Origin: Pirellulales bacterium
GTDB taxonomy: Bacteria > Planctomycetota > Planctomycetia > Pirellulales > Thermoguttaceae
Length of the DNA: 64,000 bases
NCBI GenBank assembly: GCA_963845975.1
Contig: CAWJUD010000002.1
Location: 781,646-845,645 of the forward strand
Reading direction: 5' to 3'
Both the position numbers and the translations under genes were made by a program. The notes under the pieces are model-generated. The model did no database searches and was not told the origin of the DNA. It saw only the letters and a list, made by a program, of their open reading frames with translations. Below are positions 42,172 to 60,560 of this stretch, piece by piece; position 1 is the stretch's first letter; every line of letters starts with the position of its first letter.

Positions 42172-42483
42172 GTTATCTCCAAGTTGTTAGTGTTTCTGCA
42201 ATCGTATGGCCACTTCAAACACCGCGACTCCAACGTGGGATTACAATAGTTGTAGATTTGCTCAGCATGGGTTAGTTGCCATGGTAACGAGTTTAGAAGT
42301 CATGTAAACAATTTTATGCAGTCTTTTAATCAATACTTGATTGAAGATACGAACGAACCATATAAAATTAGACCGTTTTCACCGAAAACATCAATAATCT
42401 CATGCCGGTTATCAACCCAAATAAACGCCAGCAAAGAGTTTCTTCTCCATCTTAAGGGAGGTTTCCTATATCTCGATATCACG

Positions 42484-42627
42484 GTGGATGGGGTCAATCA
42501 GGTTGATAACTAGCAAAAAGTCTCTCTTCTATCCTGAGAGGAACAAAGGTTGCCTTGGGCGGCTCATAGGGCTGTTTGGGGCTCGGCTGCTCTTCATTTT
42601 GCTGGATGACTTCTTTTGGATCATCCG
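42484..42627 (-). CDS. 47-aa Pro/Glu-rich peptide sharing an ATGA junction with the upstream PqqD-like gene; candidate precursor
   Basis: MKNPDDPKEVIQQNEEQPSPKQPYEPPKATFVPLRIEERLFASYQPD; ATG overlaps the upstream stop (acATGAaaa); SD-like aaggga 10 nt upstream; below the 60-aa ORF-track cutoff. Confidence 0.4.
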
Positions 42628-42920
42628 GGTTTTTCATGTTTGTTTCCCTTTCAGTTGAGTTATGTGTAGACTCAGTTCGCTCGCATTGGCGAGGAGGTTG
42701 GTGAAAGCGCGGTCGACTTCCGTTACGAAGTCATCCACAGTGTGCTCCCGTACATCCTCTTCCACACGGCTATGCCCATAGGGTTGATTCCTACTACGGA
42801 GTCGCACCTGTAAGGATTAAACAAGACAGCACAATCGTCGAACTCTTCCCTCAGCACCACCAACGGATTAGCCAACGGTTTTTCAGACTTACTTGTTTGC
42901 ATAACAGAATCCTGATTCAA
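42624..42920 (-). CDS. PqqD-family peptide chaperone (RRE), with a 1-nt deletion frameshift relative to its degenerate paralogue at about 52.5 kb
   Basis: NPLVVLREEFDDCAVLFNPYRCDSVVGINPMGIAVW PqqD pattern; C-terminal part continues in the -1 frame (VDDFVTEVDRAFTNLLANASEL) up to the TGA that overlaps the next ATG. Confidence 0.55.
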
Positions 42921-43112
42921 TAATTGGGGTCACCCCGAAGAGAACCGACGTTAGTCGCGGCTTACAAACACTGCCTCCATGACTAGAGCCAGAAAGACGA
43001 TTAGAAATCTATCATGTCTATAGGAAATGTATATAACCCGGTACAAAACAATGTAGTTATTTTGAAAATAAGCCTGTTGGGGGGGGGCTCTCGAAGAATT
43101 GGCCCAATCGGG

Positions 43113-43412
43113 TTAGGGGCTGATTATGTGTACCGGAATCTGCAGTTCCCATGTACAGGTACGAGTATGTGTACTTCTATGCCGACAACACTCGCCATGA
43201 CCGGCTCGCTTGTCCACCCACTCTGGGCTCCTCTTGTAATGTTTTGCCTTGGTCAATTCGTCTGCCTTGGCCTCCAACAACGTATTGAGCATCTCTTCCA
43301 CCGAGTCCCACACCAAATTGCCCAGGTAGTTCGTTACCTCCTCTTCTTCCTCATTTACCTTATACAATCCCGAAAACTTCTTACATCTGGCATTTTCTGT
43401 CACACTGCTCAT
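43113..43412 (-). CDS. Hypothetical acidic protein with Cys/His/Thr-rich C-terminus (GHGECCRHRSTHTRTCTW)
   Basis: ORF only; possible second precursor type. Confidence 0.3.
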   Translation of the reverse strand: MSSVTENARCKKFSGLYKVNEEEEEVTNYLGNLVWDSVEEMLNTLLEAKADELTKAKHYKRSPEWVDKRAGHGECCRHRSTHTRTCTWELQIPVHIISP

Positions 43413-43774
43413 GGCAGTCTCTTCTGTTGGTAAAGGTTGAGTTTTATTAACATTTTTGTGCGCATGTTTACTATTGGTATTTTTTTGGTATCATTGGATA
43501 TTATAAATCGCTATTTTTAAAGGGAGCTTTCAACCTCGGATTCGGCAACTTCACCGCAACCTTAATATATGTAAGGCGATTTGGTGAATGACATAGCAAT
43601 GCGTATCTTAACCGGTCCGTAGGTTAAGCACTTACCACATTTGTTTTGTCCGCCTTCCGAATGGTTTGTTTTTCAAAAAACACATTAGTGACCGTACTTG
43701 GTTTGTGCGCTTAACTATCTGCCATCTACTATGAGCTATTCGGTTGCGACTGTTAGGCCGCACTAGGATTTTCC

Positions 43775-45589
43775 ATGTCCATCAAAGAAGGTTATCGCAC
43801 AGTTCTGGGCGCATTGCACATTGGTCCCGCCCTCCGTTTAGTCTGGCAGGGATGTCCCGGTTGGACCGTGGCAAGCGTCCTGCTCCTGATCGTACAAGGG
43901 ACGCTGCCGCTTGTGGCGCTTTACGTTCTCAAATTGATCGTTGATGCGGTGGCGGGCGGCCTCCAAGGGGGTGCAGGCGAACACGGATTCGGGCAAGCAG
44001 CCTTCTTGATCGGCATCGCGGGCTTTGTCGCTATTGTCGCGGCTGCCTGCCAGTCTCTGGCGATGCTAGTAGACGAAGCCCAGACGCAAGCCGTTTCCGA
44101 CCACCTGCATCACATTCTCCACGCCAAGTCCGTGGAAATCGATCTCGAGTACTACGAGGATCCGCAGTTTCACGACACATTGCATCGAACCCAGTTCGAG
44201 GCATTTTTCCGGGCCTCGCACATCTTCAGAACGCTATTGCAGTTGGGACAAAACGGGATTTCGCTGGTGGCGATGGTCGTTCTAATCATTTTGTGTCACT
44301 GGCTGGTTGCCGCACTTTTGTTCTTGGCAGCCCTCCCCCTTGCCTTCGTTTATCTGCGGTATGCCAACAAGCTCTATCAATGGCGCCGTGATCGCACTTC
44401 CACCGAACGCCAGGCGACCTACCTACACTGGCTGCTAACCAGGAGCGAACCCGCTAAAGAACTTCGACTTTTTTCCCTGGGTAATCTGTTCATGGAACGG
44501 TTCCGGGAGCTGCGCAAACAGCTCCGCGAAGAAAAAATCCATATTGTTATGGCACGTTCGGTGACGGAGTTGGTCACCCAAATCGGCGCTGCCCTGGGTA
44601 TTATCGGGGCCTATGCGTTTGTGACGTATCGTGCCTTTCAAGGTTTTATGACACTTGGCGATCTGGTGATGTATTTTCAGGCATGCCAGCGGGCACAAGG
44701 TTTTTTCCAACAGTTGCTGAGCGGTTTCAGCAGTCTCTACGAGGACAATCTGTTTCTCGCGGACTTATGCGACTTCTTTGCCCTGAAGCGCAAGGTTCTT
44801 GAGCCTGGTCACCCGAAACCCATGCCCAAGCAAATGGAGACTGGGATCGTATTTGAGGGGGTCGGCTTCCGCTATCCAAACAGCACGAAAGTGGTGCTCA
44901 ACGACATCAATCTGACAATCCGTCCTGGAGAAATTGTGGCGCTGGTCGGCGAGAACGGGGCGGGTAAAACAACGTTGATCAAGCTTCTCTGCCGATTGTA
45001 TGATCCGACTAGCGGCAGTATTCGGCTCGATGGAATCGATCTGCGCCAGTTCCGGACTATTGATCTACGGCGCGACATCAGCGTCGTATTTCAGGACTAC
45101 ATGCAGTACTACACCACCGCGCGGGAAAACATCTGGTTTGGCAATACCGATTTGCCATGCGATCAGGAACGAATTGCAGTTGCGGCGCGGCAGGCCGGCG
45201 CCGACCGCGTGATCGCCAAGTTGCCTCGCGGCTATGACACGATCCTGGGAAAATTGTTCGACACAGGAGAAGAATTAAGCACCGGCGAATGGCAGAAGCT
45301 CGCCCTTGCGAGGGCGTTTCTCCGCGACGCCCAGATCGTCGTGCTGGATGAGCCGACAAGTGCCATGGGAGCCAGGGCCGAATTGCAGGTCTTCAATAAG
45401 TTCCGCCGGCTGATCGAAGGCCGCACGGCAATCCTGATCAGTCATCGGTTTTCGACCGTCCGGATTGCAGACCGGATCTTTGTGCTCGACGAGGGGAGAA
45501 TCATCGAATCTGGCAACCATGAAGAATTAATAGCCCGGGGGGGAACCTATGCTCGACTCTTTGAAATCCAAGCACAATCTTACAGATGA
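43775..45589 (+). CDS. ABC transporter, fused permease/ATP-binding exporter
   Basis: Six N-terminal TM helices; Walker A GENGAGKTTL, signature LSTGEWQKLALARAF, Walker B IVVLDEPTSAMG. Confidence 0.85.
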   Translation: MSIKEGYRTVLGALHIGPALRLVWQGCPGWTVASVLLLIVQGTLPLVALYVLKLIVDAVAGGLQGGAGEHGFGQAAFLIGIAGFVAIVAAACQSLAMLVDEAQTQAVSDHLHHILHAKSVEIDLEYYEDPQFHDTLHRTQFEAFFRASHIFRTLLQLGQNGISLVAMVVLIILCHWLVAALLFLAALPLAFVYLRYANKLYQWRRDRTSTERQATYLHWLLTRSEPAKELRLFSLGNLFMERFRELRKQLREEKIHIVMARSVTELVTQIGAALGIIGAYAFVTYRAFQGFMTLGDLVMYFQACQRAQGFFQQLLSGFSSLYEDNLFLADLCDFFALKRKVLEPGHPKPMPKQMETGIVFEGVGFRYPNSTKVVLNDINLTIRPGEIVALVGENGAGKTTLIKLLCRLYDPTSGSIRLDGIDLRQFRTIDLRRDISVVFQDYMQYYTTARENIWFGNTDLPCDQERIAVAARQAGADRVIAKLPRGYDTILGKLFDTGEELSTGEWQKLALARAFLRDAQIVVLDEPTSAMGARAELQVFNKFRRLIEGRTAILISHRFSTVRIADRIFVLDEGRIIESGNHEELIARGGTYARLFEIQAQSYR

Positions 45590-45874
45590 CAGTCGCATGA
45601 TGATGCCAGAAAGGAAAATGGACAATAAGATTAAAACCGTCTGGAAGTTGAATTTGCCAATCGGTATTGACACCAAGATGTGCACATAGGAGGATGAACC
45701 TGGCAAGGCTTCCCGGAGCCATTGTGTCGTTCCTGCACCAAAGTGAAAGGACCGTCCGACAAGGTAACATTGCATTCTTCAGGGAAATTCACGCATAGTG
45801 AGAAATATATCGGCTTTACCTAGAATCTCGGGCTCATTGTGCGATTCGTTAGGCCATTCTTGGAGGAAACAATC

Positions 45875-46213
45875 ATGGAAACAAGAAAATTACTCTCCCT
45901 CAAACATATTTTATCACTCGGTCTGATCTGCGGGTTAATCCTGATGTTTGCGGGTTGTGCGCACCAACCAGCCCCACCCCTACCCCCACAGAATGTTCCC
46001 GGCTTCTGGTCGGGACTGCTTCATGGGTTACTGATTGTGTTTAGCTTTATTGGCAGCCTATTCATGGATGTCCGGATATACGCATACCCCAATTCCGGGA
46101 TACTTTACGATCTCGGATTCCTAATAGGCGCCAGTGGGGCCCTTGCTGGCGGGGGTGTAAGTGTGTGCCGTAAAAAACGTGCTTCCGACTCCGTCAGTGG
46201 CGGCCGAGATTGA
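45875..46213 (+). CDS. Small lipoprotein/membrane protein
   Basis: Signal peptide with lipobox LMFAGC, then two hydrophobic helices. Confidence 0.45.
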   Translation: METRKLLSLKHILSLGLICGLILMFAGCAHQPAPPLPPQNVPGFWSGLLHGLLIVFSFIGSLFMDVRIYAYPNSGILYDLGFLIGASGALAGGGVSVCRKKRASDSVSGGRD

Positions 46214-46219
46214 GCCGCG

Positions 46220-47198
46220 TCAAGCATTAATTATGGTCTTCATGAGAACATCGACGGTCTGGTCCAAAGGGCCGGGATGTAATTCGTAGCACTCGGCCTT
46301 GCGCAGGGCCGCCCCTAAGGTCGACATGGATCGATAGGCTCGGGCTGGATCGGCGATCATGTTATTGAGCGAGAGCAGCATTGCGGCGGTGATGGCCCGG
46401 GCGCGAGGCATCGGTTCTAATCTGGGCGCGTCTTCGAATCCGCCGAGGAAAAAAAAGTACCGCAGATTACATGGCGAGCCTATTTCGACATCATCAGCAT
46501 GGAGAATGTGAACTCCCAATGAATCATCATAGGCGTTTCGGATTTTGTGTAGCATCTTGTCGTCTATGCAGCCCTCGATCAACGGCAAACTTTCCGGACG
46601 AACCGAGATCGACTTGGGCAAAGGGACCATCCGGTACAACTCCTTGTGGAACACAGTGACATCGTCGGAGAAATATCGAAAGCCCTGGCCCAGTAGTCCC
46701 AGCGTCAGCGTTGTTTTGCCCCGCATTGTTGGCCCCGCCAGCGCCACGCCCTGCCCATTCCATGATAGTCCGGCAGCGTGCAGTAGTTCGTGAGACTGCA
46801 CTTTTGAGAAGCAGAATGGCGAATACTTGCGTTCGGCATAGATTGTAGAGCGATTCGATGGCAAGGATATAGATATTTGCGAGGCCTTCGGAAAAGATGG
46901 CAAGATACGGTTCGCCATCACCGCTGATAAGCATGAAGATGGGAACACTGTTGGCTCGGTTCTCCGTCTTCAGACTTCCGTAAATGGCATCGAGACATCG
47001 GATGACAACACGGTCGTTGGTCTTGACACGGACGAACACGTCCAACAACCGATAGGTTCGTTCCAACTCCTCCTGCCACTTCATGTTCTGGAGTTCCTGC
47101 ACCACCCCAGATACTATCTCCCTATCCGATAGCCTTTTGCATAGCGACATGCCGTCTAGACGCAGCATCTCAGAGACCAACTGTGGTGATTGCATCAT
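46220..47198 (-). CDS. HprK-related serine kinase (stand-alone); one frameshift near 46920
   Basis: GVALAGPTMRGKTTLTLGLLGQGFRYFSDD matches the HPr kinase C-domain P-loop (GxxGxGKS/T...ADD); ATGATG start at 47198 overlaps the last 30 nt of the B12-rSAM gene. Confidence 0.65.
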
Positions 47199-48552
47199 TG
47201 TTCTCCAACAGAAGATTCCACTTCGCCAAGAAATTCGAGTCTTCGAAACGCCAGTAGGGGGCAAAAACCTTGGGATGATCTTTGATCAATTGCAGCATCT
47301 CCGCGCTTCCATTGTTCAGGGCCATCATCGATCCGTCGCCGCGGCATACGAAGCGGACCTTTGCCGCCGCCTCGTCGAAGAGAATGCTGTCTTTGTACTC
47401 CGCGTACAGCGGCGAATTCGGCATCGGCATCAGGTGGTTGAACGCGAGTATCATCGAGCACTTGCCCTCCGCCGCCTGGGAAATGTAAAAGACAAGGAAC
47501 ATGGTCTCCTTGAATTCGATTAACGTTTCGAAGGGAAATCCCCACATCAGGAAAAGTTTGATGGTTTTGAAATGCGACATCGATTGAACGATGGTGTGGG
47601 TGGCCTCCTTGATGCTGAATCCCTTGTGAAGTATCTTCAGGACCGAATCAGACCCGGACTCCAGCCCGTAGCCGATTGCAGTGCAACCCGTTGCAGTCAT
47701 GCACCTTAGCAGCTCCTCGTCCATTAGATCCACGCGTCCCAAGCAGCTCCACTCGCTGCCGGGGGCCGCCCGTTGCAGTCCTTCGCAGAATTGTTGCACT
47801 CGCTGTTTTGATAGCACGAATGTATCGTCATGGATACTGAACTCTTTCTTCCCAAACTCGTGGTACAACAAATGAACTTCCCGGAGGACGTTATCCATGT
47901 CTCGATAACGAGCCCGGCGCCCCCAGTATGTGGATATATCGCAGAACGTACAATTGTGCGGGCAACCCCGGGTTGTTAGAATGCTCGCCCTTTCATATTT
48001 TTCGAGATCCAGAAGTTGATAGGCGGGAAAGGGCCGATGGTCGAGGTCGGAGATCAATTCCCGCGCCGGCGCGGTCCACGCGGAACCATCTTCCTTTCGC
48101 ACTATCACCCCCTTGACGCGACCGCATTCTCCCGGCGCGGACTCCAGGTAATGCATCAGTTCAACAATCGTGTCGTCAGCCTCTCCGCGAACAACCACGT
48201 CGATCCAGGGAAAAGATTCGATGATCGCCTCCGCGACGCCGGACGGTCCCGCCCCGCCGAGCACGAAAACCTTGTGCGGATCGAGCTGCTTCACCTTTTT
48301 CGTAGCGAGGATGACCACCGGCAGCATGTCGTACATGCACCCGATCCCGACTACGTCCGCACAACCGGAGAGAAACGAGACAAACGTATCGACGTCAAAG
48401 GGATTCTCGTATGGGTAGGTCTGGTAGTCCTTGAAGTCCACCTTATAACCGCTTTGTACAAGCGAGGTCGCTATGTGCAAGGGCCCCAAAGGAATGAAGT
48501 GTTTTTTCGGATCAATACGGTCATACGCGGCAACGATTGATATATCGCTCAT
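47170..48552 (-). CDS. B12-binding-domain radical SAM enzyme
   Basis: N-terminal cobalamin-binding Rossmann region followed by TTRGCPHNCTFCD CxxxCxxC. Confidence 0.8.
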   Translation of the reverse strand: MSDISIVAAYDRIDPKKHFIPLGPLHIATSLVQSGYKVDFKDYQTYPYENPFDVDTFVSFLSGCADVVGIGCMYDMLPVVILATKKVKQLDPHKVFVLGGAGPSGVAEAIIESFPWIDVVVRGEADDTIVELMHYLESAPGECGRVKGVIVRKEDGSAWTAPARELISDLDHRPFPAYQLLDLEKYERASILTTRGCPHNCTFCDISTYWGRRARYRDMDNVLREVHLLYHEFGKKEFSIHDDTFVLSKQRVQQFCEGLQRAAPGSEWSCLGRVDLMDEELLRCMTATGCTAIGYGLESGSDSVLKILHKGFSIKEATHTIVQSMSHFKTIKLFLMWGFPFETLIEFKETMFLVFYISQAAEGKCSMILAFNHLMPMPNSPLYAEYKDSILFDEAAAKVRFVCRGDGSMMALNNGSAEMLQLIKDHPKVFAPYWRFEDSNFLAKWNLLLENNDAITTVGL

Positions 48553-48572
48553 AGTTGCACTTGGGATAAATT

Positions 48573-48857
48573 CTAGGAATCGCCTGCGCTGCAACGCCCG
48601 ATCAGTTGCTTGGCCTCTAGCTGCCGGATCAGATCTTCAACGTCCGTTGAAATCGCAACCGCGTCCCCCTGATAGGACGAACAGAGCCCGTTCACGATTT
48701 CGGCGACTGTCCTTTTCCCGTCCAGAAGTCTCCATATACTTGCCGCGATTCGATTAAGCACGGATACTTTGCGGCCCTGGGAATCATACAAAATGACCTC
48801 GTCCTCAAGGTCCTGGCAAGCCACATTAGCATTGTGTTGGTAAATGCCATCGAGCAT
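48573..48857 (-). CDS. PqqD-family peptide chaperone (RRE)
   Basis: VILYDSQGRKVSVLNRIAASIWRLLDGKRTVAEIV...DVEDLIRQLEAKQLI. Confidence 0.7.
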   Translation of the reverse strand: MLDGIYQHNANVACQDLEDEVILYDSQGRKVSVLNRIAASIWRLLDGKRTVAEIVNGLCSSYQGDAVAISTDVEDLIRQLEAKQLIGRCSAGDS

Positions 48858-48921
48858 GGCAGGTCTCCTAAATAATCATAAACGGCCCCGCTTCGTCAAC
48901 CGTGATATCGGGTCCTTTGTA

Positions 48922-49980
48922 TCAGTATAAAAAAGGTACGGCATGTTCCCGAAATCCCCGGGATTTCCGCGAACGCGCAACGATCTCTTCCCGAAGGTGA
49001 TTGATCATCACCGTGGCCGCACATGCAAGCTCTCGACGCCTGGTTTCCGATCCAAGGCGATCGCACAGAGATTGCAAAACCTCCGGGCGAGAGAGCATGG
49101 CCATGCACAGTTCGCATTTAGTGACGCAATTGGTCGGTTTCTCCAGGATCACGCCGCTTCCCTCGAGTTCTTGTAACAAGCCGGCAGGGCCGCCGAGTCG
49201 AAGAATGTTCAGCAGAGGCGACCTGTCTGCCTTGTGCAATATCTCCACTAAGGAAGAACGCTTGGCGTTTCCCAGGATCAAAGGGCTGTCCGGGGTAAAA
49301 GCCAGATAAGGCCCGCAACAAGCGACCACCGTGCCGTCGGGGAGCACGTTTGGCACGAAGGAAACGAAGCAGCCGGAATTCGGGGCATGTGTAGACGTTA
49401 TCATCTCGGATCGCGGAATGGACTTGGCGCGGCCGAATGGAACCACCGGCTGATCGCCGAGGGGAACGCGCTCCTCGGATAAGACGCTGTGGATCTGTTC
49501 CGCCACCGGATCGTCGCGAAGCACCGAAAGATTGACTATAACGTGAATGTCGTTCTTCTTGCAGGCCCTCACGGCGTTCAGAACATTTTCCATCGGCACA
49601 AACTGCACATGAAATTGATCGGTGCTGATGGCAATCATTTTGACGCCACGTTGCTTCAGCATGGCCGTGGTATCTATAGCTTCGCCGAGAGTCCGCGCCC
49701 AATAGGTGTCGGTCTGAACGACCGGTCGCAGGCCGCAATCTCGCGACATTTCCACCAGGTGCAGTACGTCGTCGGGAAACAGCATGGGTTCGCCGCCGGT
49801 GATCCATAACACGCGAAACCCTGCCTTTGCAGCCTCCTCCACGGTCTTTTCTGCCAGAGGCATTGGCATGACTTCAGAACGTTCCGGACCACATTCGAAG
49901 ACGCAATGTCCACATCGAGCATTGCACTTAGACGTATATACCAAACAAAGAATCGCAGGTAATCTTTCTGCAGTCTTCAC
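48922..49980 (-). CDS. Radical SAM/SPASM-domain peptide maturase
   Basis: YTSKCNARCGHC CxxxCxxC; C-terminal SPASM cysteines (CCGPY...CVTKCELCMAM); GTG start. Confidence 0.8.
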   Translation of the reverse strand: MKTAERLPAILCLVYTSKCNARCGHCVFECGPERSEVMPMPLAEKTVEEAAKAGFRVLWITGGEPMLFPDDVLHLVEMSRDCGLRPVVQTDTYWARTLGEAIDTTAMLKQRGVKMIAISTDQFHVQFVPMENVLNAVRACKKNDIHVIVNLSVLRDDPVAEQIHSVLSEERVPLGDQPVVPFGRAKSIPRSEMITSTHAPNSGCFVSFVPNVLPDGTVVACCGPYLAFTPDSPLILGNAKRSSLVEILHKADRSPLLNILRLGGPAGLLQELEGSGVILEKPTNCVTKCELCMAMLSRPEVLQSLCDRLGSETRRRELACAATVMINHLREEIVARSRKSRGFREHAVPFLY

Positions 49981-50218
49981 AAGTACTTTACTTTCCCGGC
50001 GATGCCTTAGTCATAAACCAAGAGTCGTCTAATACATAGTAACATTCATTCCGTCTCTTCACCAAGCAGAGACGATAAAATGTATATATCCACCGCCAAA
50101 CGTATACTTTGCAGCGTTTGATTGTATGCATCCACGTCTTAAAACACGTTCACATGCTGCTTTGACTATGCAACCCACTTATTGGCGCCGCATCGACAAT
50201 ACTTTATCGGCCTGTGCA

Positions 50219-50374
50219 CTAGCTGGTGTAAGTAATTGGTCCAGGGAGGGTGAATATTTGATTTTCAGGGTCAAATTTCGCCGCCACCTTTACCTTCCCC
50301 AGGACTTCATTCTCATCGTACTCCGTGATTTGAGGCTTTTCCCATATCTGCATGTCTATCTTTTCCATATTCAT
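50219..50374 (-). CDS. Precursor peptide A (51 aa)
   Basis: MNMEKIDMQIWEKPQITEYDENEVLGKVKVAAKFDPENQIFTLPGPITYTS; leader shared with copies B and C, divergent core, ITYTS tail; the 87-aa track ORF is an over-extension. Confidence 0.6.
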   Translation of the reverse strand: MNMEKIDMQIWEKPQITEYDENEVLGKVKVAAKFDPENQIFTLPGPITYTS

Positions 50375-50388
50375 AAACCCATACCTTT

Positions 50389-50535
50389 CTACTTCACAAT
50401 CTGTGCCGTCATAAGCACTGGCATGACCTCCGAACGCTCCGGAACACATTCCCAAATGCAATGTCCACATCGAGCATTGCACTTAGACGTGTATACCAAA
50501 CAAAGAAGCGCTGGTAATCTTTCTACAGTCCTCAC
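50389..50535 (-). pseudogene. Duplicated 5' fragment (48 codons then stop) of the radical SAM/SPASM gene
   Basis: VRTVERLPALLCLVYTSKCNARCGHCIWEC... is about 85% nt-identical to 49840-49980, including the upstream region. Confidence 0.6.
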
Positions 50536-50827
50536 AAGTAATTTACTTTCCCGGCGATGTCTTAGTCATAAACCAAAAATCGCCGAATATATAGTAATGC
50601 TCAATCCACCTCTTCACCAAGTACCAACAACATAGTGCATACAAACCCACCACTAAGTGGAGGCTTCATATGCACCATTGGATTGCATGCATCCACCGCA
50701 CAAGGCAGGCTCAATTGTATCTTTCACTACATACTACCCACTTATTGGCAGCGCATTGACATAACTTTATCGATCTGTCGTAAAGCGGCTACTTTTTCCG
50801 GGCGAAGTTTGGGATAAAGCGTAGGCA

Positions 50828-50974
50828 CTAGCTAGTATAATTAATTGCAAAGGAAAGTGTGTATAAATTTTCAGCATCAAATTTCGCCGCCACCCTTACC
50901 TTCCCCAGGACTTCATTCTCATCGTATTCCGTGATCTGTGGCTTTTCCCAAATCTACATGTCGGTCATGTTCAT
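50828..50974 (-). pseudogene. Precursor peptide B, interrupted by in-frame amber (TAG) at codon 7
   Basis: MNMTDM*IWEKPQITEYDENEVLGKVRVAAKFDAENLYTLSFAINYTS; CAG to TAG relative to A and C. Confidence 0.5.
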
Positions 50975-51087
50975 AAATCATCTAAACCTTTCTTAAAGCG
51001 GCTATTGACAGCATATCGACTAAACTTTATCGATCTGTCGTAAAGCGGCTACTTTTTCCGGGCGCAGTTTCGGATAAAGCGTAGGCA

Positions 51088-51237
51088 CTAGCTAGTATAA
51101 GTAATTGAGCCGGCAACTGTCCAAGTTTGACCTTCAGGGTCAAATTGCGCCGCCACCTTTACCTTCCCCAGGACTTCATTCTCATCGTACTCCGTGATCT
51201 GGGGCTTTTCCCAAATCTGCATGTCGGTCGTGTTCAT
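51088..51237 (-). CDS. Precursor peptide C (49 aa)
   Basis: MNTTDMQIWEKPQITEYDENEVLGKVKVAAQFDPEGQTWTVAGSITYTS; ATG overlaps the TGA of the upstream peptidase gene (ATGA). Confidence 0.6.
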   Translation of the reverse strand: MNTTDMQIWEKPQITEYDENEVLGKVKVAAQFDPEGQTWTVAGSITYTS

Positions 51238-51821
51238 AAATCACCTAAACCTTTCTTAAAGTGCCGGAAGGCAGAAACGAAAGTCAGAACCTTTAAACAA
51301 AATTGAAGCACGCCAATGGATACCACACGTAAGCATCGAAATATCGTTCTCGTGATGAGGTTGTGATTGTTAGGCCAGATCCATTCCTTGACGCTCCTTG
51401 CCAGCCGGTAAAAATACCACATTACATATCCATATAGTCCTAAAAACCGATTCACTATTGTCCAGTGCAAGGTCTCGTAATGATGCCGCGATGCGGTATT
51501 CTGCACAACGATCACTTTTCCTAGCACTGCCCCTATATCGAGTTTTCTATACACAAAGGAATTGTCGCCCTTCTCCAGAAGACGATCTCCTTGCCGCCCG
51601 ACAAATCGATGGACGACCAGATGTCCATGTTCCTCGAATACAAGTATGTCTCCGATCGTCAACTTATCGGCTTGTAACGATCTTACGATCAGATTGTCGC
51701 CGGGACGAATAATAGGCGACATGCTTGTACCCATCGATTCGAATGTTGCCTCACCATGGTGGCGAAGGCGCATCTGCGCCACAAGTACTGCCAAGTCTTG
51801 TTCCTTACGATCTCCCGCCAT
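51234..51821 (-). CDS. S24/S26-like serine peptidase, paralogue of 39506-39997; candidate leader peptidase
   Basis: ESMGTSMSPIIRPGDNLIV...GDILVF...HLVVHRFV...VLGKVIVV; stop overlaps precursor C start. Confidence 0.6.
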   Translation of the reverse strand: MAGDRKEQDLAVLVAQMRLRHHGEATFESMGTSMSPIIRPGDNLIVRSLQADKLTIGDILVFEEHGHLVVHRFVGRQGDRLLEKGDNSFVYRKLDIGAVLGKVIVVQNTASRHHYETLHWTIVNRFLGLYGYVMWYFYRLARSVKEWIWPNNHNLITRTIFRCLRVVSIGVLQFCLKVLTFVSAFRHFKKGLGDL

Positions 51822-52335
51822 CTTCTCATTCTTCTAAATAAATGTGTTTTATCGTTGCATAAAAGGCGTGCTCTAGGAAACGCTTCTCGGCACACCCATC
51901 GCTGTAAACATCGAACACGTCTACAGGTTACAGCGGCTCCTTGGCGAACAGCCGAGTCAGTAGAATCACAGTAGCATTAAGTGCGTTGCCTCCGTTGTCA
52001 TTTTCAAGCTACCGCACCTCTGAATAACAATCCGGGTCCTAACATTTCCTGTATGTGATGAGTATGGACCGGATCCAATTTCACCATAAATCTTTTTGCA
52101 TATCCAAAAGGTCACGCTCAGCAGTAATCTTGTGCATTCACGAGCTACAGTAATAAATCACCCTTAATGCCGTTCACTCACGTAGCTTTAGTTTTGCTCA
52201 CCGAACGAGCACAAATATCCCTCTACTAAGCGATAAAACTTTAGATTTTTACCTATGGATCCAAAAGGCGGATCATTTCGTTTAAAACGAATACTACCTC
52301 TTGACATTATTGGAATAGAATTATGATTAAACAGC

Positions 52336-52363
52336 ATTATACTATGCTAGCAAGTCTTGTCAA
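52336..52363 (-). promoter_or_regulatory. Near-consensus sigma70-type promoter (TTGACA-16 nt-TATAAT) reading toward the peptidase/precursor operon
   Basis: On the - strand: TTGACAagacttgctagcatagTATAAT in an AT-rich region about 500 nt upstream of 51821. Confidence 0.4.
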
Positions 52364-52419
52364 TCATTCGGACCGCCAAGTCAAGAAAAATTTTAGGGGG
52401 GGTGCTTTGATTTCAGCCA

Positions 52420-52692
52420 CCGACAGCCGCGTTTGGCGGAGATATCGGCGGAGGCGCGCTCGGCTACCGTTACGAAGTCATCCATGCTGTACTTACCGTA
52501 CACAAGCTACCACACTGCTATTCCAATAGGGTTGATCCCCACTGCGTCGCTCGAGTCGGGATTGAACAAAGGCTCCTCCCTCAGTACCACCAAGGGATTA
52601 GCCGCTGGTTTTTCGGATTTCCTCGTTTTCATAGAAATGCAGACTATATTTTCCATTAATCCCCCGACGCCGCCAATTGACCGCCTCCACAT
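52420..52692 (-). pseudogene. Degenerate second copy of the PqqD-like gene (premature TAG and internal deletion)
   Basis: MKTRKSEKPAANPLVVLREEPLFNPDSSDAVGINPIGIAVW* aligns with 42624-42920 at nt level, including flanks. Confidence 0.5.
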
Positions 52693-53321
52693 GATGTAAA
52701 TTTATGAAGGCCCTTCCGAATTGGTCGACATCGGCCTGAAAAACCAGTCTGATTCCAGAATAGACGCTTGCGGTCCTCACCACGAATAAAATTATTTTTA
52801 GCCGCCGAATACAAACGCTGCCTCCACGACCGGAGCCAGGAGAATTCACAATGTATTTAATTTATTGCATCCTCAGGGAATGTCAATAAAAAACTAGAAC
52901 GAAATCACCACAAATATAGCAAAAAACCTCCGGTCGGGGGATAAAACTGCCGAAGAACTAACCCAAACAGGTTAAGGCTGGATCATGTTTGCTGAGATGG
53001 TGTGTGACCTGTCCATAAGCGTGCGACATAGATGGCTATGCCGACAACACGCATGGTTACCGGCTGATTATAGGATTCGCCGCGCTTCCCGATGAAAACC
53101 AAGACTTTATGCTCGGGATCATTCGGCGTCGGTCTTGTTGATTAGACTAGCATCTTTTTCATTAAGAGCTTCTAACAAAATGACGTGTGCCACTGCTGGC
53201 TTGCAAGCAGTGCCGGGAAAAGCACCAGAAAAACGCTGCTGGCAAGCCGGGCACCGACCGAAGGTTGGTCGTGGCACGCAACTTGCCCTTTTAACTTCAT
53301 TTTGTTAGACGCTCTAAGCCA

Positions 53322-53531
53322 TTATTCCAACGCGGCCTTGCCTTGGGGATCGTCGGCCACCTTGCCAAGGTAAACAAACCGTCCCCGAACCTTTTTGCAC
53401 CACCTACTCGTCTTGTGGATGAATAGAGGGAAATCAGGTCGGGATTTGGCCGGTTTGCTAGACCGTTTCCTTATGGTAGACTTAGGCGTTATGACACCTC
53501 CAATTGGCGCCAATTCAAATCCTTTTTGCAC
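53322..53531 (-). pseudogene. Remnant of a tyrosine-integrase N-terminus
   Basis: PDFPLFIHKTSRWCKKVRGRFVYLGKVADDPQGKAAL aligns with PDFPLIVHSCGYWTKKVRGKVFYFGVLNDPDTALAKW of 61053-61625. Confidence 0.4.
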
Positions 53532-53661
53532 GCCACCAACCTATAGGACAGTTCATCGGTTCCAATACTATCGAGTGGCATGCAACGGGCGTCAAACGGG
53601 TGTCAACCTTTTTATATCGCGGTATTGGGAGTTGTCGATAAGCCCAGATTTATAGGGTTTA

Positions 53662-53748
53662 GGATGGGTGGCCGAGTGGTCTAAGGCGGCAGTCTTGAAA
53701 ACTGCTGTGGGCGTGAGTCCACCGGGGGTTCGAATCCCTCCCCATCCG
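53662..53748 (+). tRNA. tRNA-Ser (anticodon UGA)
   Basis: Acceptor GGATGGG/CCCATCC, anticodon stem GCAGT/ACTGC with loop CTTGAAA (U33-UGA-A37), long variable arm, T arm GGGGG-TTCGAAT-CCCTC, discriminator G. Confidence 0.85.
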
Positions 53749-55051
53749 TTTTTGAGAAACATGAAGCAAGATTGTATTCTTTCGTATCTTTTCGTAAGTC
53801 TTTATTAGGGTTCGTTTTTGCCGCGTTTTTCTCGACCTGATAAGAATCACCCTTAACCGCCTCTAACGATCTATTACTGTGGATTACGTGCGCCGCGCTC
53901 GTAGGATTTTGCGTTACTTGCTGTGGCGTAACTGCCGCCCGAAAATGATCGTCTACAGTACGCGCATAGTGAGCTAAGGCAATTTTTGGTGAGTGTCCAA
54001 GCCACTTAGCAACAGTCTGAATAGGAAAGCGTTCAAGCAAATCTGTTTCACTACTGGCCCTCAACCCGTGGAAAGGTTTTGGCCACGGTCGCAAACCCGC
54101 ACGTCGAATGATCTTTTCAAAGCTTGTTCGCAAGTTACTATTTCGCCACCCGGCTTTAGAATCCGCTTGGGAACGGTGCTTACTAATAACGTATATCGCG
54201 CCGTCTTTCGCCATATCGAAAGCCTCTTGCAGCGGTCCAACTAATTCTGGAAACAGCGGAATAACGCGCTGGCCACCATTGGGATAGTGCTCTGTCTTAG
54301 GGCTGATAACAGTAATCCGTTGCCTGTTCCAGTCAATATGTTCCCACTTAAGCGATAACACTTCACTCGGGCAACGTAGCCCACCAAAACGAGACAAGGT
54401 CACGATCACCCGCCATTCGGTATCAGGGCAGGCGTCTAACACACTCTCTATATCCGCCTTTGAAACGTAGACGTTCCGGCTTTCATCTACAACGGCGGCT
54501 ACTTGTACATCATTAAATGGATTCTCTTGAATTACCCCGCGCCGAACCATTGCATTGAAAAACATTTTAGCCGCCTGTAGACGCTTGCGGACAGTGTAAA
54601 GGGCTAACCCTTGACCGATCAATGCCTGTTTATAATCTTCGGTCTGAGTACGGGTAATTTGTTGGACAAGTCGATCCGCTCCAAAATACTCAATTAGGCT
54701 GCGTTCACCTTGTTTCCACACAGTCTTACTGGCAGGCTTTACATCTTGCCGCTTGTCGATGTAGTCGGCAATGAAGGCCCCTAGTGTCACTAGTTCCCGT
54801 TTAGGCACTAAACCAACGGCCGCAAGTTTAGTGTGTAATGCATCTGTGATTTTACGCAACCAAGCAGCGGTATCACTGTCGATGTTATCGCCCGACTCGG
54901 CCGCGATTAAAAGACGTTCGATATATCCCTTAACTGTTTGGGCTTGTCTGAGGGGCAACCGTTTCCCTAGATAAATCGTCACTCGTTTCCCGTTTGGGGC
55001 TGTAAATTGGATTCGCTTACCGCCACTTTTGTCTAGGTTTAATGAAGACAT
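53681..55051 (-). CDS. Tyrosine-type site-specific integrase; 3' end of ORF runs into tRNA-Ser antisense
   Basis: C-terminal catalytic region FHGLRASSET...LGHSPKIALAHYAR (R, H..R, H, Y); last about 25 codons (KTDGEGFEPP...) translate the tRNA T-arm antisense. Confidence 0.85.
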   Translation of the reverse strand: MSSLNLDKSGGKRIQFTAPNGKRVTIYLGKRLPLRQAQTVKGYIERLLIAAESGDNIDSDTAAWLRKITDALHTKLAAVGLVPKRELVTLGAFIADYIDKRQDVKPASKTVWKQGERSLIEYFGADRLVQQITRTQTEDYKQALIGQGLALYTVRKRLQAAKMFFNAMVRRGVIQENPFNDVQVAAVVDESRNVYVSKADIESVLDACPDTEWRVIVTLSRFGGLRCPSEVLSLKWEHIDWNRQRITVISPKTEHYPNGGQRVIPLFPELVGPLQEAFDMAKDGAIYVISKHRSQADSKAGWRNSNLRTSFEKIIRRAGLRPWPKPFHGLRASSETDLLERFPIQTVAKWLGHSPKIALAHYARTVDDHFRAAVTPQQVTQNPTSAAHVIHSNRSLEAVKGDSYQVEKNAAKTNPNKDLRKDTKEYNLASCFSKTDGEGFEPPVDSRPQQFSRLPP

Positions 55052-55536
55052 TTATAGTGTTCCTATACACGTGAATCATTGTTCCAACACCTTAGCCATT
55101 ACACACAATTGGGTGGTATGCATCAAAACCAGTAAATATGCCGGAAACATATACTATAAAATCAGTTAAGTGTAATGAAGCTATATTAAGGGTGGTATCA
55201 TTTAAATTCATGGTTACTACATTGCTATGAACCCTTACATACCACCTAAGAGCTTATATATTATAGATTTAGTAATTATAAACACCATTTAGGGGTGTAA
55301 TAGTATGCACACGTGGAAAACCACGGGCTAGGCGTGATAAGTACGGGGCCTTCCGGCCGCTTCCCGCCTTACTTTCAAGCATATTCGTTTAAAGCCACTT
55401 ATTCAAACCATTACCCCTAAAGCCTCCAGCTTACCCAGGGATCACAACAAGACTGTTAGGGTCAATTATATCATCCCAACCAGCCGAGCGCCATCAGGGC
55501 GCTATACGCGCTGTCATGCCTTGTAATTCATAAGGA

Positions 55537-55926
55537 TTATGGATTAAACTTCGGGCCTACACCTACTTCGCTGTATGTTTGACCTTCTTTATTCCGCCAT
55601 ACTCGCCCGGCCGGCGGAGGCGGAGCCAAACGATCTTCATCGTAATTGAATGGCAGCGGGGCATGAAACGTTACAATATCGCCTAATCTATCCAAAATAA
55701 CCACAACATTTTTATTCACGATTTCTGATGGGTCCTCAAATTCACCTACGGCACGCTCTAAATGTCTTATCGCCGCATCTTCATCTAGTAAGACAGTAAC
55801 AACCCTTCCATGATTACCTACTAAAACTAAGCGTAGTAAACTAGTGCCCTCTCCCTGATATTCTGCCTTATCAATCTTAGCCAACCATTCAGTAGAATAC
55901 ATAGCCCGCTCAATTGTGAAGATCAT
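55537..55926 (-). CDS. Hypothetical protein (island cargo)
   Basis: ORF only. Confidence 0.4.
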   Translation of the reverse strand: MIFTIERAMYSTEWLAKIDKAEYQGEGTSLLRLVLVGNHGRVVTVLLDEDAAIRHLERAVGEFEDPSEIVNKNVVVILDRLGDIVTFHAPLPFNYDEDRLAPPPPAGRVWRNKEGQTYSEVGVGPKFNP

Positions 55927-56210
55927 ATTAGGTTCCCTCTTGATTGAAATGCTATAGTCATTGCCTTACTGATTATCATTTGAGTAATGAGGTTGTTTTT
56001 TCTCAGGTGTTACCTGTTTCCGGCCATACCCGCGCATACAGGTAAAACAAGGCTCCCAAGGCCGTATAACCGGACTTGCATACACCAATAGTAGTAAAAA
56101 AGTAAATCCGAGGGGCACTATGGGAAACATGGTAACAACGAACCTATTTCTTATCTTCTTCTTCTTCTTAATATATTATAAATAAAGCACTTATGAAAAA
56201 TATAAAAAAC

Positions 56211-56310
56211 CGAATCGTTGTTACTTTTTTCCAGTAACAACAAGGTAACACCTGGAACACCTGGGGTTTCGTTGTCACTTCGTTGTTACCCCCTTTTTGT
56301 AACAACGAAA
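56211..56310. repeat. Iteron-like cluster of TCGTTGT[TC]AC / GTAACAAC repeats next to the primase gene (candidate origin or operator)
   Basis: tcgttgttac (x2), tcgttgtcac, gtaacaacaa, gtaacaacga plus acacctgg x2 within 100 bp. Confidence 0.4.
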
Positions 56311-58634: not shown

Positions 58635-58901
58635 TTATTACCCCTTCCGTCTGAACGCAGCATATTTCAGAGTATGTTCGAGGAAATTATTCACTTATGC
58701 GGCCTCTAATAAGTTAGCGGATTTTCTTAATAAGTCAGGATATTCGGCTAATTATCTTTTCTAAAGATTGCAGCCAGTGTGCCAGTAATAGTTCCCGCCC
58801 CACGGGTATGAAGTGGTTCCATAAGCTATGTACCCAGTAACCATTTTTATTTCCTTTATTTAAAGTTCTGTAACTGTATGTATATTTGAATTATAAGATA
58901 A

Positions 58902-59129
58902 CTAATCTGCAATCTGGCGTGACAATTCTTTATCAGCCCATGCTTGAATCTGATGAACGAAATAAACTACGCGAGAGCCGACCTTCACAGCAGGAATATC
59001 GCCGCGAGGAAAAGTTCGATCAAATAAAGCCTTCTCTGACATGCCGAGAGAGATCGCACATTCGCGTGGCCTCAACGCTAATCGAGGTATCTCAGGAGCG
59101 GATTCATTGGAACTATAAATAGACTTCAC
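58902..59129 (-). CDS. AlpA/excisionase-family HTH DNA-binding protein
   Basis: LRPRECAISLGMSEKALFDR...IPAVKVGSRVVYFVHQIQAW. Confidence 0.6.
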   Translation of the reverse strand: MKSIYSSNESAPEIPRLALRPRECAISLGMSEKALFDRTFPRGDIPAVKVGSRVVYFVHQIQAWADKELSRQIAD

Positions 59130-59335
59130 TCGGCACCCACTTCCGTCTTTGCTGTTTGAGAAGCCAGAGCCGCCAATACTTTCATAACGGCATTAGGCGA
59201 AAAGAGGTATCGCCGCCCTGTTTTGAGACATGGGATAACGCCCACGTCGGCTTGTTCACGTAACCATTTTTGCGTAACGCCAGCCTGGAGCGACATGCGG
59301 GAAAGAGAAAGCAATTCCGACATACATAACCTCAT
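59126..59335 (-). CDS. Excisionase/MerR-like HTH protein
   Basis: LSRMSLQAGVTQKWLREQADVGVIPCLKTGRRYLFSPNAV; 4-nt overlap with the downstream gene. Confidence 0.5.
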   Translation of the reverse strand: MRLCMSELLSLSRMSLQAGVTQKWLREQADVGVIPCLKTGRRYLFSPNAVMKVLAALASQTAKTEVGAE

Positions 59336-60418: not shown

Positions 60419-60560
60419 TAGAATGCCTTTCGTGTTTAAGATCAGGCTGCCAACCAGTTATAAGAGCGAAAGGCATGGCCTATAACTGGTTGACAACGAC
60501 GGAAGCGATCCGTCTGCCTGAAAAGATTAGATGACAATATACTTAATTCACTATTATTTA

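Follow-up and report, generated by a model that had tools for sequence, protein, structure and literature searches.

Nested precursor duplications and decayed flanking repeats in a lineage-specific RiPP island of a Thermoguttaceae planctomycete

The window, by which we mean the whole 64,000-nucleotide stretch of DNA that was analysed, carries two RiPP sub-clusters in an interval next to a tRNA-Ser gene. The main features of the interval are listed below, in window positions.

33130-53661, no strand: lineage-specific interval of 20.5 kb, holding both RiPP sub-clusters and both copies of the flank repeat; absent from the related genome L019
42494-42637, minus strand: orf47, likely precursor peptide of sub-cluster 1, with homologous small ORFs in L007 and L008
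43775-45589, plus strand: ABC exporter (permease and ATPase; Pfam)
46220-47195, minus strand: HprK-related kinase gene (TIGR04352, E = 8.8e-18)
47170-48552, minus strand: B12-binding radical SAM enzyme, likely a C-methyltransferase (Pfam PF02310 and PF04055)
48573-48857, minus strand: PqqD-family peptide chaperone (RRE), intact (PF05402, E = 3e-15)
48922-49980, minus strand: radical SAM/SPASM enzyme (rSAM), YydG-related; the GTG start at 49980 takes in the CX3CX2C motif
51234-51821, minus strand: peptidase of S24/S26 type in sub-cluster 2, likely leader peptidase (PF00717)
52336-52363, minus strand: sigma-70-type promoter, a perfect match to TTGACA-16-TATAAT (consensus match only)
53662-53748, plus strand: tRNA-Ser(UGA), right border of the 20.5-kb interval

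The rSAM/SPASM enzyme (352 aa) found its best NCBIfam match in YydG (TIGR04078, E = 1e-31, 110.5 bits against a cut-off of 300) and is a relative of YydG rather than a member of that equivalog. Only 14 homologues at E ≤ 1e-10 were present among 5.8 billion proteins, and a profile search of the genome contigs with the rSAM alignment returned no relatives. Searches for exact matches to the rSAM, B12-rSAM and precursor A proteins of the window came back empty. The B12-binding enzyme matched the ApyD-like NCBIfam model below its cut-off (E = 7e-48). Together, the enzymes of sub-cluster 2 would supply an epimerase, a methylase, a kinase and a leader peptidase for precursors that end in ...TYTS, and the promoter match sits in unique DNA between the right flank repeat and the peptidase gene. 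A homologous cluster, L001 (rSAM 56% identical), contains one precursor, no rSAM relic and no scmD; its ABC exporter and peptidase are 64% and 40% identical to those of the window, respectively, and its ABC exporter has the opposite orientation. A single inversion as the source of the orientations of the ABC and NTP_transf_5 genes was rejected, as it fails to yield the L001 gene order. In sub-cluster 1, the homologues of orf47 share the motif PYEPP..T.IP...ER and, in both L007 and L008, are found immediately upstream of a PqqD-rSAM homologue.

Some of these reading frames differ between assemblies. In the window, an additional T near 46810 breaks the HprK-related gene into two frames, while contig L097, 99.9% identical, encodes an unbroken kinase of 324 aa; L097 itself has a frameshift in the B12-rSAM gene, and contig L005 splits a 725-aa ORF. 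Single-base indels thus vary among the window, L097 and L005 and may be errors.

The precursor genes of sub-cluster 2 lie between the rSAM and peptidase genes, in an array with the following parts.

49834-50388, minus strand: first tandem unit of the 555-bp duplication, with rSAM codons 1-49, the rSAM upstream region and precursor A
50219-50374, minus strand: precursor A, intact, 51 aa: MNMEKIDMQIWEKPQITEYDENEVLGKVKVAAKFDPENQIFTLPGPITYTS
50389-50975, minus strand: second tandem unit of the 555-bp duplication, with the rSAM 5' relic, upstream region and precursor B
50389-50535, minus strand: rSAM 5'-end relic, a 48-codon ORF that retains CNARCGHC
50763-51261, minus strand: 263-bp tandem array of units B and C, 1.9 copies, extending 24 nt into the peptidase gene
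50828-50974, minus strand: precursor B, a pseudogene in which leader codon 7 has changed from CAG to TAG
51088-51237, minus strand: precursor C, intact, 49 aa; start codon (ATG) overlapping the peptidase stop codon

The array is nested. In its 555-bp unit, the end of the peptidase gene is followed by a precursor gene, then by spacer and rSAM codons 1-45; a 263-bp unit is duplicated inside it. A repeat search aligned 49834-50086 with 50389-50641 at 82% identity over 253 nt, confirming a duplication of 49830-50060 at 50388-50630 that a sequence-only reading of this DNA had reported, now as part of a longer unit. In a blastn self-comparison this longer unit (49834-50369 versus 50389-50975) was 72% identical over 590 columns (E = 7e-98), and 50743-50998 was 87% identical to 51003-51261 (E = 2e-86); Tandem Repeats Finder returned a period of 263 with 1.9 copies and 88% matches at 50763-51261. 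The tandem precursor units of about 270 bp described in the same reading apply to B and C, which are ~263 bp apart, and not to A, whose distance to B is 606 bp owing to the rSAM relic placed between them. The relic tracks rSAM codons 1-45 and diverges after that point, and a copy of the peptidase 3' end (...aagaaaggtttaggtgatttATG) precedes the ATG of each of the precursors A, B and C. A 46-nt insertion past the stop codon, common to B and C and absent from A, identifies the former two as sister copies.

As befits tandem duplication, the units stand head to tail without unique DNA between them, and their junctions cut genes and leave pieces behind. The array also has the make-up of a multi-precursor RiPP locus, with a conserved leader (92-96% identical at the nucleotide level, and identical in protein between A and C), a variable core (73-77%), and PqqD (RRE) and two rSAM genes adjoining. 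Precursor C is 63% identical to the single precursor of L001.

Two steps would account for this layout. A 555-bp unit running from the last ~8 peptidase codons through the precursor and spacer to rSAM codons ~1-45 would have been duplicated first, with the outcome that a dead relic of the rSAM 5' end separated two precursor copies; next, a unit of 263 bp made up of peptidase tail, precursor and ~110 nt of spacer would have been duplicated to give copies B and C. We infer this order of events, as well as unequal crossover (or slippage) as the mechanism of both. Precursors A and C would have been kept as working precursors with one leader in common and differing cores, and B would have died. The recombination-driven expansion proposed earlier is thus borne out for the precursor array, by the peptidase tails upstream of the precursors and the 3'-truncated rSAM relic within it.

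Another pair of repeats brackets the sub-cluster 2 genes and is composed as follows.

42686-43206, minus strand: left flank copy (R_L), spanning codons ~69-99 of the transposase remnant, a spacer and codons 1 to ~72 of scmD
42634-42902, minus strand: left scmD pseudogene, complete at 89 codons and frameshifted by the loss of 1 nt near 42747
43113-43412, minus strand: remnant of an IS256/Mutator-family transposase, reduced to 99 codons of the N-terminal region; R_L terminates within it
52433-53065, minus strand: right flank copy (R_R), an orphan fragment with ~107 extra bases at 52634-52748
52433-52632, minus strand: right scmD pseudogene, interrupted by an in-frame stop (TAG, 52507-52509) and lacking 5 codons, its 3' end swapped for unrelated sequence

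Comparison of the window with itself revealed extended similarity between the two flanks, in direct orientation, upholding the earlier proposal that 42480-43110 and 52430-52900 are homologous. The limits needed correction, as the left range begins ~200 bp too early and the right one stops ~165 bp too early; the true extent is 42686-43206 (521 bp) against 52433-53065 (633 bp), at ~78% identity with dozens of indels. By blastn, 42686-42903 and 52433-52633 were 71% identical over 219 columns (E = 5e-23), and the repeat search recovered the pair as three pieces (D5, D6 and D7) spaced 9747, 9748 and 9859 bp apart. Gapped local alignment carried the homology further upstream (42912-43206 versus 52749-53065, 78.7% over 268 aligned columns in 33 blocks), with a score of 47 compared to 21.0 ± 2.2 (maximum 30) in 200 shuffles. 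None of the flank, internal or precursor-unit repeats is due to chance, and a common origin of both flanks is supported. The unique DNA between the copies is 43207-52432 (9,226 bp), and the longest exact run that they have in common is 18 nt.

Read on the minus strand, the repeat runs from the tail of the transposase remnant through the spacer into the first four-fifths of scmD, so that its ends sit within the remnant and within scmD and not at functional boundaries. Beyond R_L, the sequence continues as the scmD 3' end on one side and the transposase 5' part on the other, whereas R_R is truncated on both sides; neither copy has short repeats next to its ends. The transposase remnant matched Pfam PF00872 (E = 1.1e-6) at profile positions 19-81 of 379, and its codons 19-74 were 45-49% identical to annotated plasmid transposases (tblastn). 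The transposase homology in R_R comes to ~25 degenerate codons, detectable by DNA-level alignment only. Over R_R, the independent contig L011 was 99.95% identical to the window.

In SynChlorMet (SCM) cassettes, scmD (TIGR04248) codes for the PqqD-family chaperone. The left copy, whose stop codon overlaps the ATG of orf47 (ATGA), scored E = 6.5e-19 and 67.9 bits against this model and the right copy E = 4.9e-9 and 36.3 bits, both as repaired translations and both short of the 100 bits that, with an intact frame, are expected of a ScmD equivalog. The left product shares 50-62% identity with intact ScmD proteins, which are 95-99 aa long. Both copies are pseudogenes, through a frameshift on the left and through a stop codon and truncation on the right. 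Frameshifts are to be read with caution here, given that two assemblies differ at three single-base indels in ~11 kb; the left scmD frameshift is common to both assemblies, including contig L005, though the samples may be related. In the right copy, the sole mismatch to L011, at 52458, is off any lesion. Queries from L009 and L010 (tblastn) detected no ScmE, ScmF or ScmC genes beside either copy, and there were no ScmE, ScmF, orf47 or PqqD-rSAM remnants beside the right one. The gene in the flanks had previously been called PqqD-like, which holds at family level, yet the two copies are scmD pseudogenes with no relationship to the functional PqqD (48573-48857), and kinship with that gene or with the PqqD domain of the 725-aa protein was rejected, there being no detectable similarity.

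The bracketing of the ~9.2-kb block had been taken as a sign of mobility, which is not supported: the block lacks a recombinase, att or target-site repeats are absent, and the flanks match exactly over at most 18 nt. When the ORFs of 43207-52432 were scanned against Pfam and NCBIfam, no intact recombinase emerged, just the 99-codon transposase remnant, and no att-type copies of either end of the tRNA-Ser gene occur within the window. An att-type repeat would be short, near-identical and target-derived; the flanks instead consist of scmD and transposase remnant, ~78% identical. A composite transposon would have two IS copies with terminal inverted repeats, and here there is one truncated transposase remnant, of which R_R keeps ~25 degenerate codons. 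Were the direct repeats active, the RiPP block could be excised, lost or amplified within the population, with on/off or copy-number variation as the outcome. We regard this as very improbable, since it draws on direct orientation only and has to contend with copies that are 78% identical, broken up by dozens of indels and without any exact run beyond 18 nt, with a block that lacks a recombinase, and with three independent contigs of a near-identical strain (known from Logan contigs) that have the same arrangement at both flanks.

Nor does the bracketed block correspond to the stretch by which the window and a related genome differ. L019, a Pirellulales genome and the sole informative relative on this point, lacks the whole of 33130-53661 and not 43207-52432 alone. 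The variable unit would therefore be the entire 20.5-kb interval by the tRNA-Ser gene, through gain here or loss in L019, a view that we hold as part of the overall explanation given below. The borders of the interval carry no repeat longer than 10 nt, and a metagenome scan with the flanking amine oxidase yielded only matches of 37-51% identity, none with gene order in common.

The duplications had also been described as recent. Jukes-Cantor distances between repeat copies were 0.14-0.34 substitutions per site, compared to ~0.001 between the window and the near-identical strain contigs L005, L097 and L011, and to 0.31-0.50 at four-fold-degenerate sites between the window and L019, the nearest related species; recency is not sustained by these values.

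The flank repeats would represent two decayed copies of one ancestral segment (transposase remnant, spacer and scmD). The junction between transposase and spacer is the same in both, so the copying postdates the insertion and truncation of the IS. The left copy would be the original in its native context, and the right one an orphan fragment. They are not a by-product of paralogy of the whole clusters, because divergence between the sub-clusters is much greater in their working genes than in the flanks: the S24 peptidases are 30% identical, and the PqqDs show no similarity. With a PqqD domain present in each sub-cluster, scmD was presumably redundant, and both copies would have drifted into pseudogenes. 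The flanks would have no present function and would be too diverged for RecA-type excision or amplification.

How the second copy came about could be envisaged in other ways. A head-to-tail tandem duplication of at least 9.7 kb, starting from the repeat, followed by deletion of most of the second copy so that R_R was left, fits the direct copies with their 9.75-kb period and the smaller-scale tandem duplication demonstrable at the same locus. We consider it improbable: 53066-53661, to the right of R_R, has no similarity to the sequence from 43207 onward, to the right of R_L, and at least two further deletions would be required that have no supporting trace.

The left flank copy stands 570 bp from the ABC gene and the right one 610 bp from the peptidase gene, near the two limits of the L001-type gene set; such closeness is likewise expected if the cassette was inserted by recombination at an scmD-like sequence. 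In an ancient Campbell-type integration, which recasts the earlier idea of mobility as an old event, an incoming YydG-type cassette with an scmD-like segment would have crossed over with a resident scmD head, leaving the flanks as footprints. That the repeats tightly enclose a complete L001-type gene set except for NTP_transf_5, that relatives of sub-cluster 1 occur amid integrases, IS elements and conjugation genes, and that the whole interval is lineage-specific all speak for such an event. We nonetheless think it unlikely, as L001, the sole close relative of the cassette, is without scmD or transposase remnant at either end, an R_R truncated at both ends beside a continuous R_L is not what a simple single crossover predicts, and no donor-like sequence was found, the nearest intact ScmD being at most 62% identical. 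In the same vein, and as a rather doubtful proposition, the bracket could be the footprint of modular cassette exchange, a YydG-type cassette having entered a resident SCM-type cluster at the scmD head, and the cassette may encode an undescribed RiPP class.

Our preferred reading, to which we assign a probability of roughly 0.6, is that the repeats are scars of old, ordinary DNA duplication in a patchwork RiPP island of a member of the Thermoguttaceae (Planctomycetota), comprising a nested precursor array and decayed flank copies, with the 20.5-kb interval as the variable unit.

Several known systems resemble parts of this island. SCM cassettes (TIGR04248 ScmD, TIGR04250 ScmE, TIGR04251 ScmF, and TIGR04249/Pfam PF27840 ScmC), on which a literature search for SynChlorMet found no papers, have in L009 and L010 the canonical order Cys-rich precursor, ScmD, ScmE, ScmF, ScmC, ABC and NTP_transf_5. 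The flank gene is a ScmD homologue at the 50-62% identity given above, and the island shares with these cassettes an ABC exporter (55% identical to the canonical ones), an NTP_transf_5 gene and HprK/ScmC-like domains. It differs in that both scmD copies are pseudogenes under the family cut-off with no ScmE or ScmF after them. Its functional maturases comprise a PqqD-rSAM fusion and, together with a B12-rSAM, a YydG-like rSAM; its precursors lack the Cys-rich character, and ABC and NTP_transf_5 have the reverse orientation. Prochlorosin-type lanthipeptide and cyanobactin clusters are multi-precursor RiPP clusters with tandemly duplicated precursor genes; they and the array have in common one maturase set for several precursors, near-identical leaders, divergent cores and local tandem duplication, whereas the scars here (rSAM 5' relic, peptidase tails) are unusually legible and one of three copies is dead.

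The YydFGHIJ epipeptide system of Bacillus subtilis consists of the radical SAM epimerase YydG, the precursor YydF, the protease YydH and the ABC transporter YydIJ. Its counterpart here has an rSAM/SPASM enzyme with YydG as best match, a peptidase and an ABC exporter in the cluster; in contrast, the match reaches 110 bits against the cut-off of 300, a B12-rSAM, PqqD and HprK-like kinase are additional, the peptidase is of S24/S26 type and not YydH, and the host is a planctomycete. In paeninodin-type lasso-peptide clusters, an HPr-kinase-like kinase and a nucleotidyltransferase phosphorylate a C-terminal Ser. The window likewise brings together an HprK-related kinase, NTP_transf_5, PqqD and an ABC exporter with precursors ending in ...TYTS, and has radical SAM enzymes instead of a lasso cyclase and B2 protease, which were not seen here. 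Like tRNA-associated islands and composite transposons, the 20.5-kb interval abuts tRNA-Ser and is absent from L019, and there is IS and integrase debris; unlike in them, the repeats that bracket the 9.2-kb block are neither att sites nor IS copies, and the interval lies on the 5' side of the tRNA with no partial tRNA repeat in the window.

For the biology of such loci, bracketing by direct repeats does not here mean mobility, and that over-reading is corrected. The repeats themselves are ordinary, as RiPP clusters usually evolve by tandem precursor amplification with decaying gene relics. If true, the cassette-exchange reading would show how RiPP clusters swap entire enzyme sets. In the cassette, a YydG-like rSAM and a B12-rSAM occur alongside an HprK-like kinase, an S24 leader peptidase and cores ending in TYTS, and only one close relative was found among 5.8 billion proteins; this rare SCM-related gene set of a planctomycete, in a lineage-specific 20.5 kb, is a reasonable candidate for heterologous expression. 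The array is a dated example of precursor expansion whose junctions are intact and whose order is legible: duplicate, keep the leader, vary the core and lose one copy.

Comparison of the window with itself by blastn returned four off-diagonal matches in the region of the two RiPP sub-clusters, and a separate repeat search recovered the same pairs. The left and right flanks of the second sub-cluster aligned at 42686-42903 versus 52433-52633 (71% identity, E = 5e-23). Gapped local alignment extended this homology further upstream, to 42912-43206 versus 52749-53065, with 78.7% identity over aligned columns and a score of 47, compared with 21.0 ± 2.2 in 200 shuffles. The right copy carries ~107 additional bases (52634-52748), and DNA identity between the flanks is ~78%. 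The bracketing direct repeats and their extended similarity, as proposed by the sequence-only reading, are therefore genuine, while their limits had to be corrected to 42686-43206 and 52433-53065, which leaves a unique block of 9,226 bp (43207-52432) between them.

Read along the minus strand, each flank copy starts within a transposase remnant and continues through a spacer into the first four-fifths of scmD:

43113-43412, minus strand: short ORF, at the left flank, that retains the N-terminal part of an IS256/Mutator-family transposase and matches positions 19-81 of the 379-position Pfam profile PF00872 (E = 1.1e-6)
42634-42902, minus strand: scmD, left copy, dead through a 1-nt deletion near 42747
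52433-52632, minus strand: scmD, right copy, dead through an in-frame TAG (52507-52509), a 5-codon deletion and a 3' end swapped for unrelated sequence

Codons 19-74 of the transposase remnant showed 45-49% identity to annotated plasmid transposases (tblastn). After repair of the lesions, the second gene matched NCBIfam TIGR04248 (SynChlorMet cassette protein ScmD; E = 6.5e-19 for the left copy and 4.9e-9 for the right), and hundreds of intact ScmD proteins (95-99 aa) shared 50-62% identity with its translation. Contigs of a near-identical strain, assembled independently, carry the lesions too (L005, 99.89% identity; L011, 99.95%); the sole L011 mismatch, at 52458, lies outside them. When compared with the PqqD gene still in working order (48573-48857) and with the PqqD domain carried by the 725-aa radical SAM (rSAM) protein of sub-cluster 1, the scmD relics showed no detectable similarity to either.

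The two copies are not equivalent. The left one runs unbroken at one end into the remainder of scmD, whose stop codon overlaps the ATG of orf47, and at the other into the 5' portion of the transposase remnant. Neither the 3' continuation of scmD nor the 5' continuation of the transposase was found at the right copy, which we therefore regard as an orphan sub-fragment of left-type sequence. Since the junction between transposase remnant and spacer is identical in both copies, both were probably copied from one ancestor after IS insertion and truncation; support for this point is of moderate strength, as just ~25 degenerate codons of transposase are left in the right copy (AGNHACCRH... versus AGHGECCRH...). 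Between the two sub-clusters, functional genes have diverged far more than the flanks (30% protein identity between the S24 peptidases), so the flank repeat is not a side effect of whole-cluster paralogy. Insertion of the cassette long ago, through recombination at scmD, seems an unlikely origin of the bracketing copies, and the genomes at hand do not separate it from the stray-fragment reading that we favour.

Inside the block, the internal duplication of the rSAM 5' end and the tandem precursor units noticed at first reading were likewise recovered. Self-comparison by blastn aligned 49834-50369 with 50389-50975 (72% over 590 columns, E = 7e-98), 50743-50998 with 51003-51261 (87%, E = 2e-86) and 50216-50369 with 51085-51238 (84%, E = 2e-42), and Tandem Repeats Finder reported 1.9 copies of a 263-nt period at 50763-51261. 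The array is ordered as follows:

51234-51821, minus strand: S24 peptidase
51088-51237, minus strand: precursor C, intact, its ATG overlapping the peptidase stop codon, followed by a spacer
50828-50974, minus strand: peptidase tail and precursor B, whose leader codon 7 is TAG in place of CAG, followed by a spacer
50389-50535, minus strand: upstream region and rSAM relic, between precursors B and A
50219-50374, minus strand: peptidase tail and precursor A, intact, followed by a spacer
48922-49980, minus strand: rSAM

A copy of the final ~25 nt of the peptidase gene precedes the ATG of every precursor, and the relic retains rSAM codons 1-45, including CNARCGHC, and is divergent beyond. A 46-nt insertion past the stop codon is common to precursors B and C and absent from A. 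The array would thus have been built by two nested tandem duplications, presumably of a 555-bp unit and then of a 263-bp unit. Leaders (25 codons) are 92-96% identical in DNA among the copies, those of A and C being the same in protein, and the cores are 73-77% identical; a near-constant leader with a variable core is the usual pattern of RiPP multi-precursor arrays. A promoter consensus is matched at 52336-52363, between the right flank copy and the peptidase gene.

Upstream of the rSAM start, the duplicated region holds two small minus-strand ORFs (49988-50131 and 50543-50653) that share a conserved C-terminus, ..WFMTK(A/T)SPGK*, and finish just ahead of the rSAM GTG; they could be a micro-ORF or mere conserved leader sequence. 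The database models of this rSAM (P0001, 315 aa) and of a relative (P0002, 316 aa) begin ~37 codons past the GTG at 49980 (region 49870-49980, minus strand) and so leave out the CX3CX2C radical SAM motif. The N-terminal region of the rSAM is conserved in L001, a metagenome contig with a related cluster (tblastx).

Going by family matches alone, PqqD would bind the conserved leader, and the YydG-like rSAM and the B12-rSAM would modify the core, with epimerisation and C-methylation as best guesses. TYTS, conserved at the C-terminus, is a possible phosphorylation target of the HprK-like kinase; the S24/S26-type peptidase might cleave after the V-A-A motif, and the ABC protein would export the product.

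Three single-base indels (~40875, ~46810 and ~47920) distinguish the window from the 99.9% identical Logan contigs, and each alters a gene model. The extra T at ~46810 splits the HprK-like gene, which is intact (324 aa) in L097; the B12-rSAM gene is frameshifted in L097 and intact in the window; and the 725-aa window ORF is split in L005 into 436 aa and a second gene. As these differences may be assembly errors on one or other side, we do not claim cluster decay from them.

We then considered the age of the duplications. Jukes–Cantor distances were 0.26 between the flank copies and 0.14-0.34 between the tandem units, compared with about 0.001 between the window and the near-identical strain contigs. 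At four-fold-degenerate sites, the distance to L019, a related Pirellulales MAG, ranged from 0.31 (EF-G) to 0.50 (Band7). The duplications are hence two orders of magnitude older than the strain divergence and of the same order as the species split; contrary to the sequence-only reading, they are not recent. RecA acts efficiently on stretches of perfect identity of roughly 25 nt or longer; with a longest exact run of 18 nt, the flanks are poor recombination substrates today. Exact runs among the precursor copies reach 33-51 nt, and recombination or gene conversion could still be feasible there. The flank pair shows no sign of mobility or present function. Of the sequence-only reading, the repeats stand and the interpretation holds in part, recent expansion and cassette mobility being unsupported.

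EF-G (23288-25378) assigns the window to Planctomycetota, Pirellulales, Thermoguttaceae, with 93-94% identity to two Thermoguttaceae MAGs (SPRUCE 241 and 80 lineages) and 88-90% to L019. Gene order at 14.5-33.1 kb is common to L019, in which the Band7 gene is followed by 155 bp (20928-21082) and then a tRNA-Ser, 97.7% identical to window 53662-53748. The intervening 20,532 bp (33130-53661) have no counterpart in L019 and contain a GT2-TPR gene, an amine oxidase, NTP_transf_5, both sub-clusters and both flank copies, at a G+C of 0.511 versus 0.531 leftward. No boundary or att repeats of this interval were found in the window; it may have been gained in the window lineage or lost in L019, the one relative compared. 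A separate island lies to the right of the tRNA-Ser (53681-64000; G+C 0.43):

53681-55051: tyrosine integrase, its 3' end overlapping the tRNA-Ser on the opposite strand
56311-58398: DUF3987 protein
63387-63959: ORF called resolvase-like on visual inspection of its N-terminal sequence

No att-type repeat (a second copy of either tRNA-Ser end) was found within the window. Between the right flank copy and the tRNA-Ser sits a 69-codon ORF (53322-53531, minus strand) that resembles the N-terminus of a 190-aa protein of the right-hand island (61053-61625, minus strand), with 49% identity across 39 aa. Neither matched Pfam or NCBIfam; their common motif, PDFPL..H....W.KKVRG..Y.G, we take to be reminiscent of planctomycete integrase N-termini. 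A 48-nt stretch left of the tRNA-Ser (53236-53282) is 94% identical to L034 5730-5777, a stretch that in another Thermoguttaceae MAG precedes EF-G by ~300 bp, and its 25-nt core recurs in a third genome (L030 9598-9622); it may be a conserved small element.

Other repeats occur elsewhere in the window. The tRNA-Pro gene (28388-28463) has its 3' part copied at 30616-30664 (86%) and 29092-29138 (83%), and these repeats flank a DUF7453/PEP-CTERM gene (29278-30354) that itself has internal repeats within 29508-30188 (e.g. 29515-29747 versus 29950-30179, 72%). Window 28830-30656 has no counterpart in L019, and 28388-30664 resembles a small island that integrated at tRNA-Pro. A 36-41-nt element, possibly a small dispersed repeat or MITE, occurs four times in both orientations (467-504, 4151-4191, 5838-5878 and 15239-15276; 92-100% identity), embedded in a 132-nt inverted pair (5769-5900 versus 15220-15350, 87% identical).

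Among 5.8 billion proteins, the YydG-like rSAM had 14 homologues at E ≤ 1e-10, one of them close (56% identity). The contigs of this close homologue (L001-L004, JGI metagenomes) carry a simpler one-strand arrangement, in the order S24 peptidase, one precursor, rSAM, PqqD, B12-rSAM, HprK-like kinase, ABC exporter and NTP_transf_5, with no duplication, scmD or transposase remnant. Canonical SCM cassettes (L009, L010) comprise, in order, a Cys-rich precursor, ScmD, ScmE, ScmF, ScmC, ABC and NTP_transf_5. Relatives of the sub-cluster 1 PqqD-rSAM are surrounded by integrases, IS66 elements and conjugation genes, and have an orf47-like peptide directly upstream, without scmD; the 725-aa ORF weakly resembles HprK/ScmC over its last 301 residues. 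A leader motif links the orf47 product (42494-42637, minus strand) to 60-aa peptides found upstream of PqqD-rSAM homologues in L007 and L008; orf47 stops after ...LFASYQPD, where these peptides go on into a Cys-rich core; the sub-cluster 1 precursor may be truncated.

The island thus combines an orf47/PqqD-rSAM/kinase-like/S24 module, a YydG-type module and the debris of a canonical SCM cassette. Its repeats are scars left long ago in this patchwork RiPP island by duplication and recombination, and the precursor array is an ordinary multi-precursor expansion under selection.
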